From Thermoplasmata archaeon (GTDB taxonomy: Archaea > Thermoplasmatota > Thermoplasmata > GCA-020350865): a DNA stretch of 64,000 bases. The translations under genes were made by a program, and so were the position numbers. Positions 20,165-58,038 of the stretch are shown here, piece after piece (positions within the stretch are counted from its first letter, which is position 1; every line of letters begins with the position of its first letter). The notes beneath the pieces are model-generated. The model was not told the DNA's origin and ran no database searches. It saw nothing but the letters and a program-made list of their open reading frames with translations. The DNA lies in assembly GCA_020348445.1 (NCBI GenBank), contig CP070751.1:4537709-4601708 (forward strand). Direction: 5' to 3'.

Positions 20165-20617
20165 TCAATCTCCTTTGAATTCATAGTTAATTTCTATGTC
20201 GCAGTTCACTGCATTAATCAAAGGGCATCTTGTTTTTGATTTTTCAAAGCAATTTTTAAGATCTTCCTGAAACCTCTTCTGGGCATAAACATGAAGTACC
20301 ATTTCGATTTTCAATATCTGCTCCTTTCCACTCATTTCGTGGCTCATCTCACCTCTTACATCTGTATTCACATCATCTAAAATAACGCCAACTTCCTGGG
20401 CGCATTTTGTAAATGTGGAGGTGAAACATGCACCTATACTAGCAAGAAATAATTCTCCGGGTGCAGGTGCAGAATTGGTTCCATACTTCCATTTGGGACC
20501 ATCAGCCTCTACCTCGAATCCCCTTATGAGGGTGGTGGTTTTGATACCCCCTTCCCAAAGGGTTTTTACGTGGGTTTTTATCTTTTTTATCTCCGTTTCG
20601 CCCTTTTCCATCGACAT
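20165..20617 (-). CDS. osmC: OsmC/Ohr-family protein
   Basis: APAPGELFLASIGACF and KTRCPLINAV carry the two conserved cysteines of the family. Confidence 0.85.
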   Translation of the reverse strand: MSMEKGETEIKKIKTHVKTLWEGGIKTTTLIRGFEVEADGPKWKYGTNSAPAPGELFLASIGACFTSTFTKCAQEVGVILDDVNTDVRGEMSHEMSGKEQILKIEMVLHVYAQKRFQEDLKNCFEKSKTRCPLINAVNCDIEINYEFKGD

Positions 20618-20836
20618 GGCAAATCCCTAAAGTTCTCTTTGTATATGTTTTTGTTGTATGTTCTTTTTGATTGTTACTTCTTAATTTGTATCAGATTATT
20701 CCTTTTATGATACTTAAACCGTTACCTTTAAATGTCATAGGATTAATAACGTAACGACGATTTGCAACCGTTATACGTCTATCTATATCCGATATTCGCA
20801 ATGAAGTTGACGATAACTCGATATGGGGACTTCGGT

Positions 20837-22333
20837 ATGAGTAAAGTATCAGATGAATTGTACGAAGAGATCACGACAATAACCGGCAAGGATAGGGTGA
20901 GAAACGATTCCTTCGAAAGACGGATGTATAGCCATGACTTGGCATCCCTGCCAAAATTAATGGAATTGGGTTTTAAAATGATGCCCGATCTTGTTGTTAA
21001 ACCCAAGTACGACGAGGAAATCTCCGAGGTAATGAAGATCGCGGCATCTGAGGGAATCCCCGTGGTTCCAAGAGGCGGGGCAAGCTGGGGTTTAGGAGGG
21101 GCAATGCCTGTTGAGGGGGGTATCGTACTGGACCTCACAAGAATGAACAAGATCCTGGAAATTGACGAGGAAAATCTCACCGCCTCAGTGGAACCAGGAA
21201 TCACATGGAAAATGCTACAGGAAAATCTCTTACGAAGAGGGTATATCATAGGATCATACCCAAGCTCCGCTTACGCTGCCACTGTTGGAGGCTGGATCAA
21301 TACCGGTGGTGTTGGTGTAGGTTCATACAAATATGGATCCGCAATAAACCAGATCATATCCATGGAAGTTGTACTGCCCACAGGTAGAATCATATCAACA
21401 AACGGGAAAAAATCGTCGAACTTTGGTGGAATTGACCTCAACAGGTTATTTTTCGGGGCTGAAGGTACCCTTGGAATAATAACAAAAGTGGGTGTGAGGA
21501 TCTATCCAGCACCCCAGGAACTACGCCCCGTATCCTATGCATTCTCAGATTTAAATGACTTATCAAAGACTGTAAGAGTCCTTACAAAAACCGATATTGT
21601 CCCGCTACATATTTCATTTTTAGATAGAAATCATTTCAAATTCCTCAGAGAGATAGGGATGGCAGAAGATATGCAACAGCTGGGAGGAATGCTGAATATT
21701 GCTCTGGAAGGGGATTCAGAGGTGATTGATTTAGAGGATGAGATCATAGAGAACATCGCTATTAAGTGCAAAGGAGAAAAGCAAAGCCAAGAATTCTCAG
21801 AGCATGAATGGAAGGAGAGGTTCTATGAACTTCGAACTAAAAGAGCCGGACCATCGGCGGTGCTCGGGGAAGTTTTCGTTCCTGTATCGAGTATGGGGAA
21901 TATGATTTCTGCAACAAATAAATTAATTGCAAAAATGAAGCTCAGGGCAGCGATAACGGGTATGGTCAGTGATAGAAATACCGTGGTTTTCATGCCATAT
22001 TATCTTTCAGACGAGCGTAAATTAATCAGAAACATAGCATCACTTTCCTTTGTCAAGAAATTGGGGGATCTTGCATTCGAACATGGAGGTAGACCTGCTG
22101 GACTGGGACTCTTTTTTTCTGGGAATATTAAGAGGATGTACGGTCATGGATATGGTGTGATGAGAGACCTCAAGGACGTCCTTGATCCATATGATGTGAT
22201 GAACCCTGGAAAAACCACCGAGGGACTCACAAGATTTGGAATCCCCATACCCTCTTTTGCATTGAACCTCGGAATGAATGTCATGTCCTGGGTAAAACAT
22301 CTTATGACCAAGGATAAAGGGGTGTCAGCTTGA
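20837..22333 (+). CDS. FAD-binding oxidoreductase, GlcD/D-lactate dehydrogenase family (copy 1)
   Basis: PDLVVKP, VVPRGGASW.LGGA.P..GGIVLDLTRMNKILEIDEE, PSSA..ATVGGWINTGG, GAEGTLGIITK, KDVLDPYDVMNPGK. Start ATG 20837 preferred. Confidence 0.9.
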   Translation: MSKVSDELYEEITTITGKDRVRNDSFERRMYSHDLASLPKLMELGFKMMPDLVVKPKYDEEISEVMKIAASEGIPVVPRGGASWGLGGAMPVEGGIVLDLTRMNKILEIDEENLTASVEPGITWKMLQENLLRRGYIIGSYPSSAYAATVGGWINTGGVGVGSYKYGSAINQIISMEVVLPTGRIISTNGKKSSNFGGIDLNRLFFGAEGTLGIITKVGVRIYPAPQELRPVSYAFSDLNDLSKTVRVLTKTDIVPLHISFLDRNHFKFLREIGMAEDMQQLGGMLNIALEGDSEVIDLEDEIIENIAIKCKGEKQSQEFSEHEWKERFYELRTKRAGPSAVLGEVFVPVSSMGNMISATNKLIAKMKLRAAITGMVSDRNTVVFMPYYLSDERKLIRNIASLSFVKKLGDLAFEHGGRPAGLGLFFSGNIKRMYGHGYGVMRDLKDVLDPYDVMNPGKTTEGLTRFGIPIPSFALNLGMNVMSWVKHLMTKDKGVSA

Positions 22334-55879: not shown

Positions 55880-56938
55880 TTATTCAACTGCGAGCTTCTG
55901 TAACTTTCTTACATATTTTTCAGCTCTGTCTGGGGTGGACAGCACATTTTCTATGAAATCCACTTCCCTTAAGGAGCTCAAACCATTCTCTTTTAGGGCC
56001 CCCTCGTATAACTTTCCGAGAAAATTTCCACTATATCTTTCATTCTTCAAGGCCTGGTGTATGACCCCAGCTGCTATCCTTCCACTTTTGATGGCATAAT
56101 AAATACCCTCCCCGGTTCCTGGAAATACGAATCCACCCGCGTCACCCACAAGTAAAGTGCGATCATTTGCATGTGTGTGAATAGGGCCACCCATGGGAAT
56201 GAGGTGTGCCTCCATTTTTTGTATGGACCCGCCTTCTATCTTTTCCTTTACTAATTCATGCTTCATGAACTTATTTAAGACTGATTTTACATTCTTTTTA
56301 AACTCATTTGATGTACCTCCCACCCCTACCTTTATTGATGCCCTTTGCGGACTGATCCAACCGTAGCCATATGGAATCGAATAGTATACCTCAAACCAAT
56401 TACCAATTAATCTATCGATCTTTTCTTTCGGAAGTGAAATTACGAACTGGGCGGCAGTTGCTTTTGGATAAGGTTCAGAGGGGAAATCAAAGCATTTTTT
56501 ATTGACAATGGAATTCACACCATCGGCTCCAACCACGAGTTTAGATTTGTAGGTTTCTTTTTCTCCGTGTACCTCTACAAAATCATCTTTTATTTTAAAA
56601 TCCAGAATCCTTTCATGCTTTACTTCATTATTTAACCTATTTACAAGAAATCGATCAAGTTTGTACCTACTGACAATAGCACCTTTGTTTGAAAAGTCGG
56701 ATTCGACCATAAAACCAGTGGGGGAATATATCCTATAACCCTCAAGCCTTCTTTCAATAAGCTCCTCGGGAAGATCCATCTCAGAATGAATCCTGGGAGG
56801 AAGAACACCGGCACATGGTTTATCCCTTGGAAACTTTTCCTTATCTATGATTACTATCTCATGATCCTCTTTTTCAAGACCATAAGCAACAGATGATCCT
56901 GCAGGTCCTGCTCCAACTATCGCAACATCGAATATCAA
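55880..56938 (-). CDS. Geranylgeranyl-reductase-family FAD oxidoreductase (LipT-like by context)
   Basis: DVAIVGAGPAGS, FPRDKPCAG, VVGADGVNS, GYGWISP, LVGDAGGFVFPGTGEGIYYAIKSG. Divergent from lipS1. Confidence 0.8.
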   Translation of the reverse strand: MIFDVAIVGAGPAGSSVAYGLEKEDHEIVIIDKEKFPRDKPCAGVLPPRIHSEMDLPEELIERRLEGYRIYSPTGFMVESDFSNKGAIVSRYKLDRFLVNRLNNEVKHERILDFKIKDDFVEVHGEKETYKSKLVVGADGVNSIVNKKCFDFPSEPYPKATAAQFVISLPKEKIDRLIGNWFEVYYSIPYGYGWISPQRASIKVGVGGTSNEFKKNVKSVLNKFMKHELVKEKIEGGSIQKMEAHLIPMGGPIHTHANDRTLLVGDAGGFVFPGTGEGIYYAIKSGRIAAGVIHQALKNERYSGNFLGKLYEGALKENGLSSLREVDFIENVLSTPDRAEKYVRKLQKLAVE

Positions 56939-57063
56939 TTGTACATCACCGAACTGAAAGAAGGTAAGGGTAATTCGAATTTAAGGATTTTCTATCACCA
57001 AAGCAAATTATAAAATATTCAACACCATATCCTGCTCATCTTAGAAAAGTATGGTGAAGGAAA

Positions 57064-58038
57064 TTGGATAAAATTTCAAAAACAATAAATAAATTACGCT
57101 CCCAGGATCTAGATGACCTGGTAGAACAGGCTTGGGAAATCAGAAATAGAAATTTTCCACGGGTGCTTAATGTTTCAGTACCCAGTGCCAAGACTTATAT
57201 TACTGATCACTACCAGAATAAACAGAATATCTTTGTGAATATCAGCATCACAGGAAACATTTGCGAGTTAAATTGCGAGCATTGTAAAAGAAAACTTCTT
57301 CAATCCATGATCCCGGCAAAAACCCCTTTGGAACTTAAAGAGGTGGGAGAATCCTTGGTAGAAAAAGGATGCCATGGAGTTCTTGTTTCCGGGGGTGCAA
57401 TGTCCGATGGGATGGTTTCTCTTGACAATTACATTGATTCAATAAGATATCTAAAAGAAATCGGATTGCAGGTTATTGTTCATACAGGTCTTGTCAACCA
57501 GACTATTGCTTCCAAATTGAAAGAGGTGGGTGTCGATCAGGTTCTAATCGATATTATCGGTGATAAGGAAACAATAAAAGATGTATATCATCTTGATAAG
57601 ACTCCCGAGGATTTTGAAAAATCCCTGAGAATTTTGAAGGGCGTTGGTTTGGAGATAGCACCTCATATAGTAATAGGTCTTAATTACGGCAAGATCTCAG
57701 GGGAATACAATGCACTTCATCTAATATCTGAAGTGAGTCCAGAGGTGATAGTCCTTGTGGTAATATCACCCATGCATGGGACACCAATGCACGGTTTGAA
57801 AACACCTTCTCCAGATAATATCGCAAGAATTGCAGCCATTGCACGGATTATCAATCCAAATACCAAGGTTACATCGGGCTGTGCTAGACCTCCAGGACCC
57901 CAAAAGATAGAAACCGAAAAGCTACTTATCAAAGCTGGTGTCAACTCCATGGCTTACCCTACAGATGAGGCCGTTGATTATGCACACAACCTTGGATTAA
58001 AGACGATTTTCAAGGAAGAATGCTGCTCTTTATTGTGA
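57064..58038 (+). CDS. lipS1: Radical SAM lipoate synthase component, LipS1-type
   Basis: CELNCEHC radical SAM motif, SGCAR and C-terminal ECC match the LipS1 GC(M/A)R and CC signatures. TTG start after GGTGA. Confidence 0.82.
   Translation: MDKISKTINKLRSQDLDDLVEQAWEIRNRNFPRVLNVSVPSAKTYITDHYQNKQNIFVNISITGNICELNCEHCKRKLLQSMIPAKTPLELKEVGESLVEKGCHGVLVSGGAMSDGMVSLDNYIDSIRYLKEIGLQVIVHTGLVNQTIASKLKEVGVDQVLIDIIGDKETIKDVYHLDKTPEDFEKSLRILKGVGLEIAPHIVIGLNYGKISGEYNALHLISEVSPEVIVLVVISPMHGTPMHGLKTPSPDNIARIAAIARIINPNTKVTSGCARPPGPQKIETEKLLIKAGVNSMAYPTDEAVDYAHNLGLKTIFKEECCSLL

Follow-up and report, generated by a model that had tools for sequence, protein, structure and literature searches.

Stand-alone lipoyl carriers and a second lipoylation system encoded with heterodisulfide reductase genes in a Thermoplasmata archaeon

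Gene content of the locus

Genes for a heterodisulfide reductase (Hdr)-type complex and for protein lipoylation are interleaved in a 64,000-nucleotide stretch (bases 4,537,709-4,601,708; hereafter the window) of the 5.16 Mb, one-contig genome of a Thermoplasmata archaeon (assembly GCA_020348445.1, contig CP070751.1). Every long open reading frame (ORF) between 20 and 58 kb of the window was scanned against Pfam and NCBIfam, and the features are collected in Table 1. From position 50306 down to 25553 all called genes lie on one strand, except for a plus-strand ORF of 328 amino acids (aa). The gene classes named in a preceding sequence-only reading of the window, namely an hdr operon, three lipoyl carriers, two lipoate ligases, LipS1, LipS2 and a LipT-like flavoprotein, were all recovered by the scans. 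That list was correct as far as it went, but two GlcD-like/HdrD-like pairs and an OsmC-family gene also belong to the locus. Its statement that genes for the glycine cleavage P, T and L proteins, the 2-oxoacid dehydrogenase components E1, E2 and E3, mcr, dsr, TusA and DsrE are missing was borne out across the 64 kb; a rhodanese was likewise not detected in the window scans.

Table 1. Lipoyl carrier, lipoylation, hdr and neighbouring genes of the window
Feature	Position	Strand	Evidence
OsmC-family protein	20165-20617	-	PF02566, 63 bits; divergent from GlcD-like a
GlcD-like a	20762-22333	+	FAD_binding_4, FAD-oxidase_C
HdrD-like a	22330-23484	+	CCG x2, Fer4
Carrier 1, 138 aa, SSGKW loop	25059-25475	+	GCV_H, 129.6 bits
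FrhB/FdhB_C-like Fe-S protein	25553-26998	-	PF04432, E 5e-6; Fer4_8
mvhD (FlpD) 2	26698-27180	-	PF02662, 181 bits
HdrA-like flavo-Fe-S protein, 570 aa	27184-28896	-	HdrA2 model, 448.6 bits, 2 stretches; C-terminal 2x[4Fe-4S]
Compact HdrA, 359 aa, sHdrA-like architecture	28883-29962	-	6tjr (sHdrA), E 7e-43
HdrA, 1001 aa, tandem HdrA-type modules	29959-32964	-	HdrA2 model, 976.7 bits, 3 stretches
mvhD (FlpD) 1, C-terminal extension	32965-33777	-	PF02662, 177 bits
HdrL, 1565 aa, HdrA/GltD-NfnB fusion	33778-38475	-	5odc_A, E 1e-225; Fer4_20, Pyr_redox_2
hdrC2; hdrB2	39356-39913; 38472-39356	-	TIGR03288, 283.5 bits; TIGR03290, 125.1 bits; 5odc_B, E 5e-69
hdrC1; hdrB1	40802-41353; 39900-40805	-	TIGR/Pfam scans; 8rvv_B, E 6e-58
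Two paralogous soluble proteins, 219 and 230 aa	41601-42966	-	No Pfam or NCBIfam match
LplA-LplB-DUF116 fusion ligase	43151-44692	-	PF21948, 162.9 bits; Lip_prot_lig_C, DUF116
LipS2-type radical SAM lipoyl synthase	44782-45813	-	NF053743, 230.5 bits
Carrier 2, 167 aa, ESAKF loop	45794-46297	-	GCV_H, 88.4 bits
LplA2, ligase catalytic domain only	46306-47157	-	PF21948, 109.4 bits, from model position 43
UbiB kinase, UbiA a, 328-aa protein (+ strand), UbiA b	47418-52230	-	Pfam scan
HdrD-like b	52250-53479	-	Pfam scan; CCG motifs intact
GlcD-like b	53466-55037	-	Pfam scan
Carrier 3, 142 aa, SSGKW loop	55215-55643	-	GCV_H, 133 bits
Geranylgeranyl-reductase-family flavoprotein, LipT-like	55880-56938	-	TIGR02032, 208.4 bits
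LipS1-type radical SAM lipoyl synthase	57064-58038	+	NF053742, 231.1 bits (cut-off 230)
NapC-like multihaem cytochrome (879 aa) and cytochrome b	58216-61679	+	After LipS1

The hdr operon consists of 11 minus-strand genes with overlapping or abutting ends, in the order hdrC1-hdrB1-hdrC2-hdrB2-hdrL-mvhD-hdrA-hdrA'-hdrA''-mvhD-frhB-like. Both HdrB copies contain two complete five-cysteine CCG motifs (CX31-41CCX33-36CXXC), as do both HdrD-like proteins, so that all four CCG proteins are intact, and the HdrC and HdrD-like proteins each carry two ferredoxin-type motifs (CX2CX2CX3C in HdrC). HdrB and HdrC thus have the motifs of the methanogen-type enzymes, with PDB matches at E 1e-50 to 5e-69. Residues 153-634 of HdrL match NfnA, NfnB and GltD structures, which places a GltD/NfnB-type NAD(P)H module within HdrA; this fusion of HdrA with a glutamate synthase-type module, followed by mvhD, is the arrangement from which HdrL was defined in Desulfobacterium autotrophicum (Strittmatter et al. 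2009, PMC2702500). The 'split hdrA' of the sequence-only reading does correspond to two smaller HdrA genes, but a more fitting description is that of a compact HdrA of sHdrA-like type and a distinct HdrA-like protein of 570 aa. The compact form aligns with 6tjr in one full-length stretch, and with a higher score (213-228 bits), in two stretches, with methanogen HdrA. The long N-terminus of the FrhB-like ORF overlaps mvhD and its true start is probably near 26689; the orthologues in two other genomes of the genus (G003 and G004) are 381-481 aa long. The catalytic subunit of a hydrogenase (MvhAG) or formate dehydrogenase was found neither among the 11 genes nor elsewhere in the window.

Lipoyl carriers and their lipoylation machinery

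All three carriers have the GCV_H fold and retain the lipoyl lysine. Carrier 1 is encoded on the plus strand, just past the 3' end of the hdr operon, with HdrD-like a, GlcD-like a and OsmC beyond it, and the carrier 1/FrhB-like arrangement recurs in the Thermoplasmatota families f44 and f25. Carrier 3 is the first gene of a carrier-GlcD-HdrD-UbiA run. Residues K68 and W69 are invariant among 51 carriers, and in a tree of 106 sequences the carriers from Hdr and lipoylation contexts group apart from canonical GcvH, sharing a P(D/E)(D/E)LYY N-terminal motif and the lysine followed by tryptophan. The window carriers contain no or one cysteine and have isoelectric points (pI) of 4.6-5.3, the pI being the sole basis on which surface charge was judged. 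Two conserved cysteines and a basic surface have been given as marks of LbpA, the lipoate-binding protein of the sulfur-oxidising sHdr system (recent preprint). These two cysteines occur together in 0 of the 106 carriers, which are acidic. With the GKW loop but an acidic pI and no cysteine pair, the window carriers are thus LbpA relatives without the features tied to sulfur handling.

Carrier 2 and its ESAKF-type homologues form a sub-clade of their own in the tree and are always paired with LplA2. In Bacillus, GcvH and LipL constitute a lipoyl relay, and by analogy carrier 2 is possibly an assembly relay that acts together with LplA2. A second carrier copy in Candidatus (Ca.) Terraquivivens (L028:18573-18974, L029 and L090) has HGMR in place of the GKW loop, so that it cannot be lipoylated at the usual lysine.

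The fusion ligase combines LplA, LplB and the cysteine-rich DUF116 domain, and is found at 40 or more loci in Thermoplasmata, Ca. Terraquivivens, Desulfobacterota, WOR-3, Caldisericia and Actinomycetota. In both window ligases the conserved N-terminus extends upstream of the first usual start codon. For the fusion ligase this concerns positions 44693-44740, where the frame is open without a stop or canonical start, and for LplA2 about 45 conserved codons (47158-47290) in an open frame without ATG, GTG or TTG. Either a non-canonical start, such as ATA or ATT, or a fault in the annotation probably accounts for this. LipS2 scores below the NCBIfam cut-off of 270, yet this remains by far its best family. 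A LipT-like gene lies beside LplA, LipS1 and LipS2 in 54 of the 72 loci retrieved in a scan for the fusion ligase across phyla.

GlcD-like and HdrD-like partners of the carriers

Each of the two GKW carriers of the window (1 and 3) has its own GlcD-like/HdrD-like pair. HdrD-like a combines the two CCG domains with two [4Fe-4S] clusters. In GlcD-like a and b the His-His-Glu metal triad of D-lactate dehydrogenase (D-LDH; GHxGDGNxH and GEHG) is replaced or deleted, as judged for GlcD-like b from an alignment with mouse D-LDH (8jdc). The triad is also lost in the homologues from Firmicutes, Terraquivivens and Thermoplasmata, and is retained in three Desulfobacterota homologues. A further GlcD-like flavoprotein, encoded at positions 62955-63998 of the window, likewise has no His-His-Glu triad. 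Besides Hdr, the GlcD/HdrD-like pair is an equally conserved partner of the carriers, occurring with them in Firmicutes, Desulfobacterota, Terraquivivens and Thermoplasmata.

A second lipoylation system in the genome

Five H-protein-like genes are encoded in the genome. The best-scoring one heads a gcvH-gcvPA-gcvPB-lipS1'-lipS2'-lplB'-lplA' operon, 207 kb from the window set. Since canonical glycine cleavage is thus provided with its own carrier and lipoylation genes, the machinery in the window represents a second, dedicated system. An E2 acyltransferase was not found anywhere in the genome. The sequence-only reading would have been refuted by carriers that partner with glycine cleavage or E2 proteins encoded elsewhere; this check came out in its favour, in that the carriers are not needed for glycine cleavage. 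The fifth carrier belongs to a paralogous locus at 1.24 Mb (GlcD-HdrD-UbiA...LplA2-carrier-hdrC-hdrB-hdrL...OsmC), where it directly precedes hdrC-hdrB-hdrL. The same reading had called for a genome-wide check for mcr and dsrC: DsrC has no match in the whole genome, and McrA has no match in the single contig, in which the genes for coenzyme M (CoM) and coenzyme B (CoB) biosynthesis were not searched for.

The genome's only GCV_T matches lie in a 1257-aa protein in which serine hydroxymethyltransferase (SHMT) is fused to two GCV_T domains (G000:C1:5088854-5095004; L003:854-7004, minus strand). A gene for a 784-aa HdrA-MvhD fusion comes next, 23 nt downstream. The other four genomes of the genus (G001-G004) all have the two genes in this order, which is absent from other families and which again places Hdr modules beside lipoyl-protein chemistry. 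At 5.16 Mb the source genome far exceeds the others of its genus (2.3-3.7 Mb) and of its class (1.2-2.3 Mb); it encodes about 21 CCG-domain proteins, and its marker-based completeness is only 81.7% although it is a single contig.

Genes for TusA and DsrE occur at 1.332 Mb and elsewhere, the TusA-DsrE cluster being more than 85 kb from any carrier. At this locus (G000:C1:1331750-1338600; L092) TusA, a DsrE2-like protein and two DsrE proteins are followed by BacA, a protein with one CCG domain and a fusion of a flavoprotein with a NuoE-like [2Fe-2S] protein. It was considered as a type II sHdr locus and ruled out, as it contains CCG and NuoE-like proteins but neither a carrier nor etfAB.

Conservation in relatives and beyond the phylum

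Within the genus, the order of the lipoate cluster and the hdr operon is kept in G003 and G004. In G001 the ligase part is lost and a stand-alone DUF116 gene (L087:10001-10543, beside hdrC1) is found with the genes for the two paralogous proteins of no known family and hdrC1B1C2B2-hdrL, while elsewhere in this genome there is a tight, co-oriented GlcD-HdrD-carrier-HdrC-HdrB-HdrA-MvhD run. With carrier 3 as the query, 38 of 401 Thermoplasmatota genomes gave matches at E 1e-25 or better. Flanking regions were retrieved for 34 carrier matches, 33 of which hold a carrier at 44% identity or more. HdrA, HdrB, HdrC, HdrL or MvhD is encoded within 10 kb of the carrier at 16 of these 33 loci, distributed over nine families, and in several (L095, L107, L109 and L127) the hdr operon itself includes the carrier, internally or as a terminal gene. 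About a dozen further loci have lipoylation genes or GlcD/HdrD near the carrier, GlcD/HdrD occurring within 10 kb at only four of the 33. Lipoate-assembly genes accompany the carrier at about 12 loci. By comparison, none of eight canonical gcvH loci of the same phylum has an hdr gene within 10 kb, while three have gcvPA/PB. Five genomes of 2.2-5 Mb contain three to eight HdrB-like genes each, from which the chance for a random gene to lie so close is about 3%. Ranked by similarity to HdrB2, the HdrB linked to the carrier comes first or second in all five.

The 72 loci of the fusion-ligase scan revealed a conserved core (carrier-GlcD-like-HdrD-like-LplA2-carrier-LplA-LipT-LipS2-LipS1) in Syntrophomonadaceae, Desulfitobacterium, Desulfosporosinus, Desulfobacterota, Ca. 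Terraquivivens and Thermoplasmata. In the loci from the first three of these taxa (L060-L088) the cluster adjoins genes for NAD kinase-like, E1-beta, E2 acyltransferase, CMD/AhpD-family and LipA-like proteins, and a DUF6506 gene is located between HdrD and LplA2. Searches from the HdrB side identified a GCV_H-hdrC-hdrB-hdrA-mvhD-hdrA-mvhD cluster in a metagenome-assembled genome (MAG) of the Firmicutes. In another bacterial MAG, genes for carbon monoxide dehydrogenase/acetyl-CoA synthase adjoin an hdrB-hdrL-mvhD...hdrC-GCV_H cluster, and on a metagenome contig GCV_H lies between two hdr operons; an Actinomycetota contig has no GCV_H in its 12 kb. The prediction of the sequence-only reading that the lipoate genes would be conserved beside hdr in relatives thus holds in the genus, in nine other Thermoplasmatota families and in two bacterial MAGs. 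The recurrence of this pairing in many archaea and some bacteria makes protein-bound lipoate a testable candidate for the disulfide of Hdr-type complexes outside methanogens.

Protein-bound lipoate as a candidate Hdr substrate

The second lipoylation system, the LbpA-like carriers without the cysteine pair and their repeated placement beside intact CCG subunits suggest that HdrB and the HdrD-like proteins act on a protein-bound lipoyl disulfide, which would fill the role of CoM-S-S-CoB or DsrC; a probability of about 0.6 is assigned to this proposal. Carriers 1 and 3 would be lipoylated by the LplA-LplB-DUF116 ligase, LipS1, LipS2 and LipT, and their lipoyl dithiol/disulfide would serve as substrate of the CCG-domain catalytic subunits. 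HdrB1 and HdrB2 may form a flavin-based bifurcating or confurcating complex with HdrC, HdrL, the several HdrA proteins, MvhD and the FrhB-like protein. Within it, coupling of the lipoyl group to pyridine nucleotides, ferredoxin and perhaps F420 would fall to the HdrA flavins, MvhD, the FrhB-like protein and HdrL with its NAD(P)H module. The HdrD-like proteins and the non-canonical GlcD-like flavoproteins would make up the other CCG side, with a possible link to the UbiA, cytochrome b and multihaem membrane partners.

The potential of lipoamide is near -290 mV and that of CoM-S-S-CoB -140 mV. At a value so far below that of CoM-S-S-CoB, free lipoamide would be ill suited as the high-potential acceptor when NAD(P)H is the bifurcating donor. 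Confurcation, in which dihydrolipoyl groups and reduced ferredoxin would together yield NAD(P)H, is favoured by this value, which does not settle the direction; alternatively, the carrier may cycle, being kept oxidised by a second enzyme. These energetics are one of several considerations that weigh against the proposal. About half of the carrier loci in the phylum have no hdr gene within 10 kb, the commonest CCG neighbour of the carriers across phyla is HdrD-like/GlcD-like rather than HdrBC, and CCG proteins are also known from enzymes with no disulfide-reducing activity (GlcF, GlpC and SdhE-type subunits, for example). Two lipoamide dehydrogenase-like genes are encoded elsewhere in the genome, both below the family cut-off (one at 352 bits). 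Free lipoate and dihydrolipoate, furthermore, had no effect on the Hdr-type methylenetetrahydrofolate reductase of Sporomusa ovata, where protein-bound lipoate was not tried (PMC9430772). For a modelled complex of HdrB2 (alignment of 77 rows) with carrier 1 (51 rows) the score was 0.00, below the threshold, and this prediction is counted neither for nor against. The overall interpretation of the sequence-only reading, a bifurcating Hdr complex acting on lipoyl proteins, is hence sustained in part: synteny and the duplicated lipoylation genes speak for it, but the commonest CCG partner is GlcD/HdrD, and it is not evident that bifurcation from NAD(P)H would be favourable.

In the methanogen HdrABC-MvhAGD and HdrA2B2C2 complexes (5odc, 7bkb and 8rvu), HdrB with two non-cubane-cluster motifs, HdrC, HdrA and MvhD are found as in the window operon, whose proteins match these structures at E 1e-50 to 1e-225. 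McrA was not found, nor does the operon encode a catalytic subunit of a hydrogenase or formate dehydrogenase; it has lipoyl carriers beside it instead, and an NAD(P)H module in HdrL. As with DsrC and DsrMK, the proposed substrate of the CCG subunit is a small protein-bound dithiol; it would, however, be a lipoyl group and not a cysteine pair, and neither DsrC nor DsrAB was found. The disulfide substrate of Hdr-type complexes outside methanogens and sulfate reducers is expressly described as unknown in two papers (PMC9430772, PMC9723716). The idea of a lipoyl substrate is not wholly new: for the Culexarchaeia, where GcvH is encoded in an Ehe hydrogenase/HdrA2B2C2 cluster, the authors suggested in passing that it might carry an unknown disulfide (Kohtz et al. 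2022, PMC9723716). As in the window, a non-methanogen there encodes a GcvH-family protein together with HdrB and a bifurcating Hdr. It is a single cluster with a membrane hydrogenase in a TACK lineage, and its description there reports no dedicated lipoylation genes, survey or control, whereas here the three carriers of the window are accompanied by a second lipoylation system and by paralogous loci, and the synteny extends across the phylum. This remark and the negative S. ovata test with free lipoate were all that was found in the literature on a lipoyl-Hdr link outside sulfur oxidisers, and no paper was found that reports a dedicated lipoylation set, a clade of cysteine-less carriers or a survey.

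Few predicted electron-bifurcating enzymes of anaerobes are as widespread as complexes of the HdrABC, HdrL and MvhD types. If the proposal is correct, lipoate would gain an energy-conserving role beyond 2-oxoacid and glycine metabolism and sulfur oxidation, and the name 'glycine cleavage H protein' now given to thousands of genes would be wrong. Such a role could be tested with the small carrier in recombinant form, its cognate ligase and a partner of the Hdr or HdrD type, and the window is a good test case, with all parts in one closed genome plus an internal paralogous copy. A wider and more tentative possibility, considered rather doubtful as a whole, is that the cysteine-less GKW carriers constitute the general 'heterodisulfide' of non-methanogenic anaerobes among both Archaea and Bacteria, shuttling between HdrD-type enzymes, which may be linked to flavoproteins, quinones or cytochromes, and bifurcating HdrBC-HdrA/HdrL-MvhD complexes. 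In this genus they might also receive electrons from glycine cleavage via the T-protein/HdrA-MvhD pair, replacing lipoamide dehydrogenase.

Alternative explanations

The lipoate genes could be housekeeping genes, serving glycine cleavage or an unrecognised 2-oxoacid enzyme, that merely lie near hdr. In keeping with this, the carrier family is publicly annotated as 'glycine cleavage system H protein' and carrier 1 exceeds the NCBIfam cut-off for the GcvH subfamily (131.7 versus 117); its GKW loop is, however, non-canonical, and gcvPA/PB are paired with another, better-scoring gcvH that has its own lipoylation genes. As the adjacency is repeated in the paralogous locus, in nine families and in bacteria, against none of the eight controls, the synteny tests strongly disfavour chance, which is hardly credible. 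It is less readily dismissed, though still unlikely, that the carriers serve only the GlcD-like/HdrD-like enzyme, as a lipoyl-protein:X oxidoreductase, and that the hdr operon is a neighbour sharing regulation or downstream carriers. The core of carrier, GlcD, HdrD and lipoylation genes is indeed conserved without hdrBC nearby in lineages of Firmicutes, in Desulfobacterota, in Ca. Terraquivivens and in Thermoplasmata, and each GKW carrier of the window has a pair of its own. Against this stand the rarity of GlcD/HdrD relative to hdr at the phylum loci (4 versus 16 of 33), the carriers within hdr operons, the bacterial hdr cases and the paralogous locus with its carrier directly before hdrC-hdrB-hdrL. 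A role of the carriers as reductants of thiol peroxidases, in a detoxification of OsmC/Ohr or AhpD type for which Hdr or the HdrD-like proteins regenerate the dihydrolipoyl groups, is improbable. Stand-alone H-like lipoyl proteins do adjoin OsmC in the window, in the paralogous locus (L001), in G001, in G035/G024 and in Ca. Terraquivivens, and 13 Firmicutes loci have a CMD/AhpD-family gene. Peroxide reduction by H-protein, L-protein and OsmC is cited for Trichomonas and Hyphomicrobium, a GcvH-like protein being the proposed OsmC donor in the latter (preprint 10.64898/2026.10.01.755906). The link is patchy here, however, with OsmC at none of the 34 phylum-sample loci, and an 11-gene flavo-Fe-S operon of 5500 residues would be a heavy cost for detoxification alone. 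The reductase would moreover be of the Hdr or HdrD type instead of lipoamide dehydrogenase, so that this explanation still needs Hdr or HdrD to act on a lipoyl carrier.

The closest established system is sHdr-LbpA of sulfur oxidisers, with its sLpl(AB), LipS1, LipS2 and LipT proteins (Cao et al. 2018, PMC6067878; Tanabe et al. 2023, PMC10332631; 2024, PMC11094781). A divergent sulfur oxidation, in which the carriers present sulfane sulfur to HdrB as in Hyphomicrobium, Aquifex and Sulfolobales, would account for the stand-alone H-protein-like carriers encoded with Hdr-like CCG subunits, the dedicated ligase/LipS1/LipS2/LipT set beside them, the hdrC1B1C2B2 tandem, the compact sHdrA-like subunit and the GKW loop. 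These shared traits make the contrast drawn by the sequence-only reading too sharp, though it was right about the lack of sulfurtransferases and the added HdrL and MvhD. The gene orders shdrC1B1AHC2B2 (type I) and shdrC1B1AHB3-etfAB-emo (type II) are not present in the window, which has neither etfAB nor emo and where the compact HdrA is seven genes downstream; sHdrH was not searched for. The cluster contains no sulfurtransferase (TusA, DsrE3 or rhodanese), the carriers lack the LbpA cysteine pair and are acidic (pI about 4.6), and HdrL, the large HdrA proteins, the two MvhD and the FrhB-like protein are not sHdr parts. The HdrB copies are closer to methanogen HdrB; in pairwise comparisons HdrB2 is 29-31% identical to sHdr-like HdrB and scores 207-236 bits to methanogen HdrB, and the host is an anaerobe-type, non-methanogenic member of the Thermoplasmata. 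A comparator within the phylum is provided by the Thermoplasmata family f11 (L138, L140 and L142), which has sHdr-like clusters of HdrC, compact HdrA, HdrC, HdrB and LbpA together with two LplA-like genes and a second carrier, and in which LbpA combines an ESGKW loop with N- and C-terminal cysteines. On the grounds of synteny, cysteines and sulfurtransferases, membership of the window system in sHdr was rejected, and sulfur oxidation of this kind is very improbable.

Neighbouring genes

UbiA b lies directly 3' of hdrD-like b, and the GlcD-HdrD-UbiA order recurs in L001, L022, L024, L025 and L100. The 328-aa plus-strand protein encoded between the two UbiA genes has no Pfam or NCBIfam match. 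Homologues of the multihaem cytochrome flank carrier-GlcD-HdrD modules in other Thermoplasmatota (L024, L099, L100, L101, L005 and L008), which hints at a membrane or extracellular electron route. The pair of 219- and 230-aa proteins is kept between LplA-DUF116, or the stand-alone DUF116, and hdrC1 in G003 and G001, and weak homologues of the 219-aa protein are encoded beside carriers in the families f44, f25 and f35 (L112, L113, L115 and L117). At positions 5897-7400 of the window, an AbiEii-type nucleotidyltransferase toxin gene is preceded by a gene for a 247-aa protein, with which it probably forms a type IV toxin-antitoxin pair.

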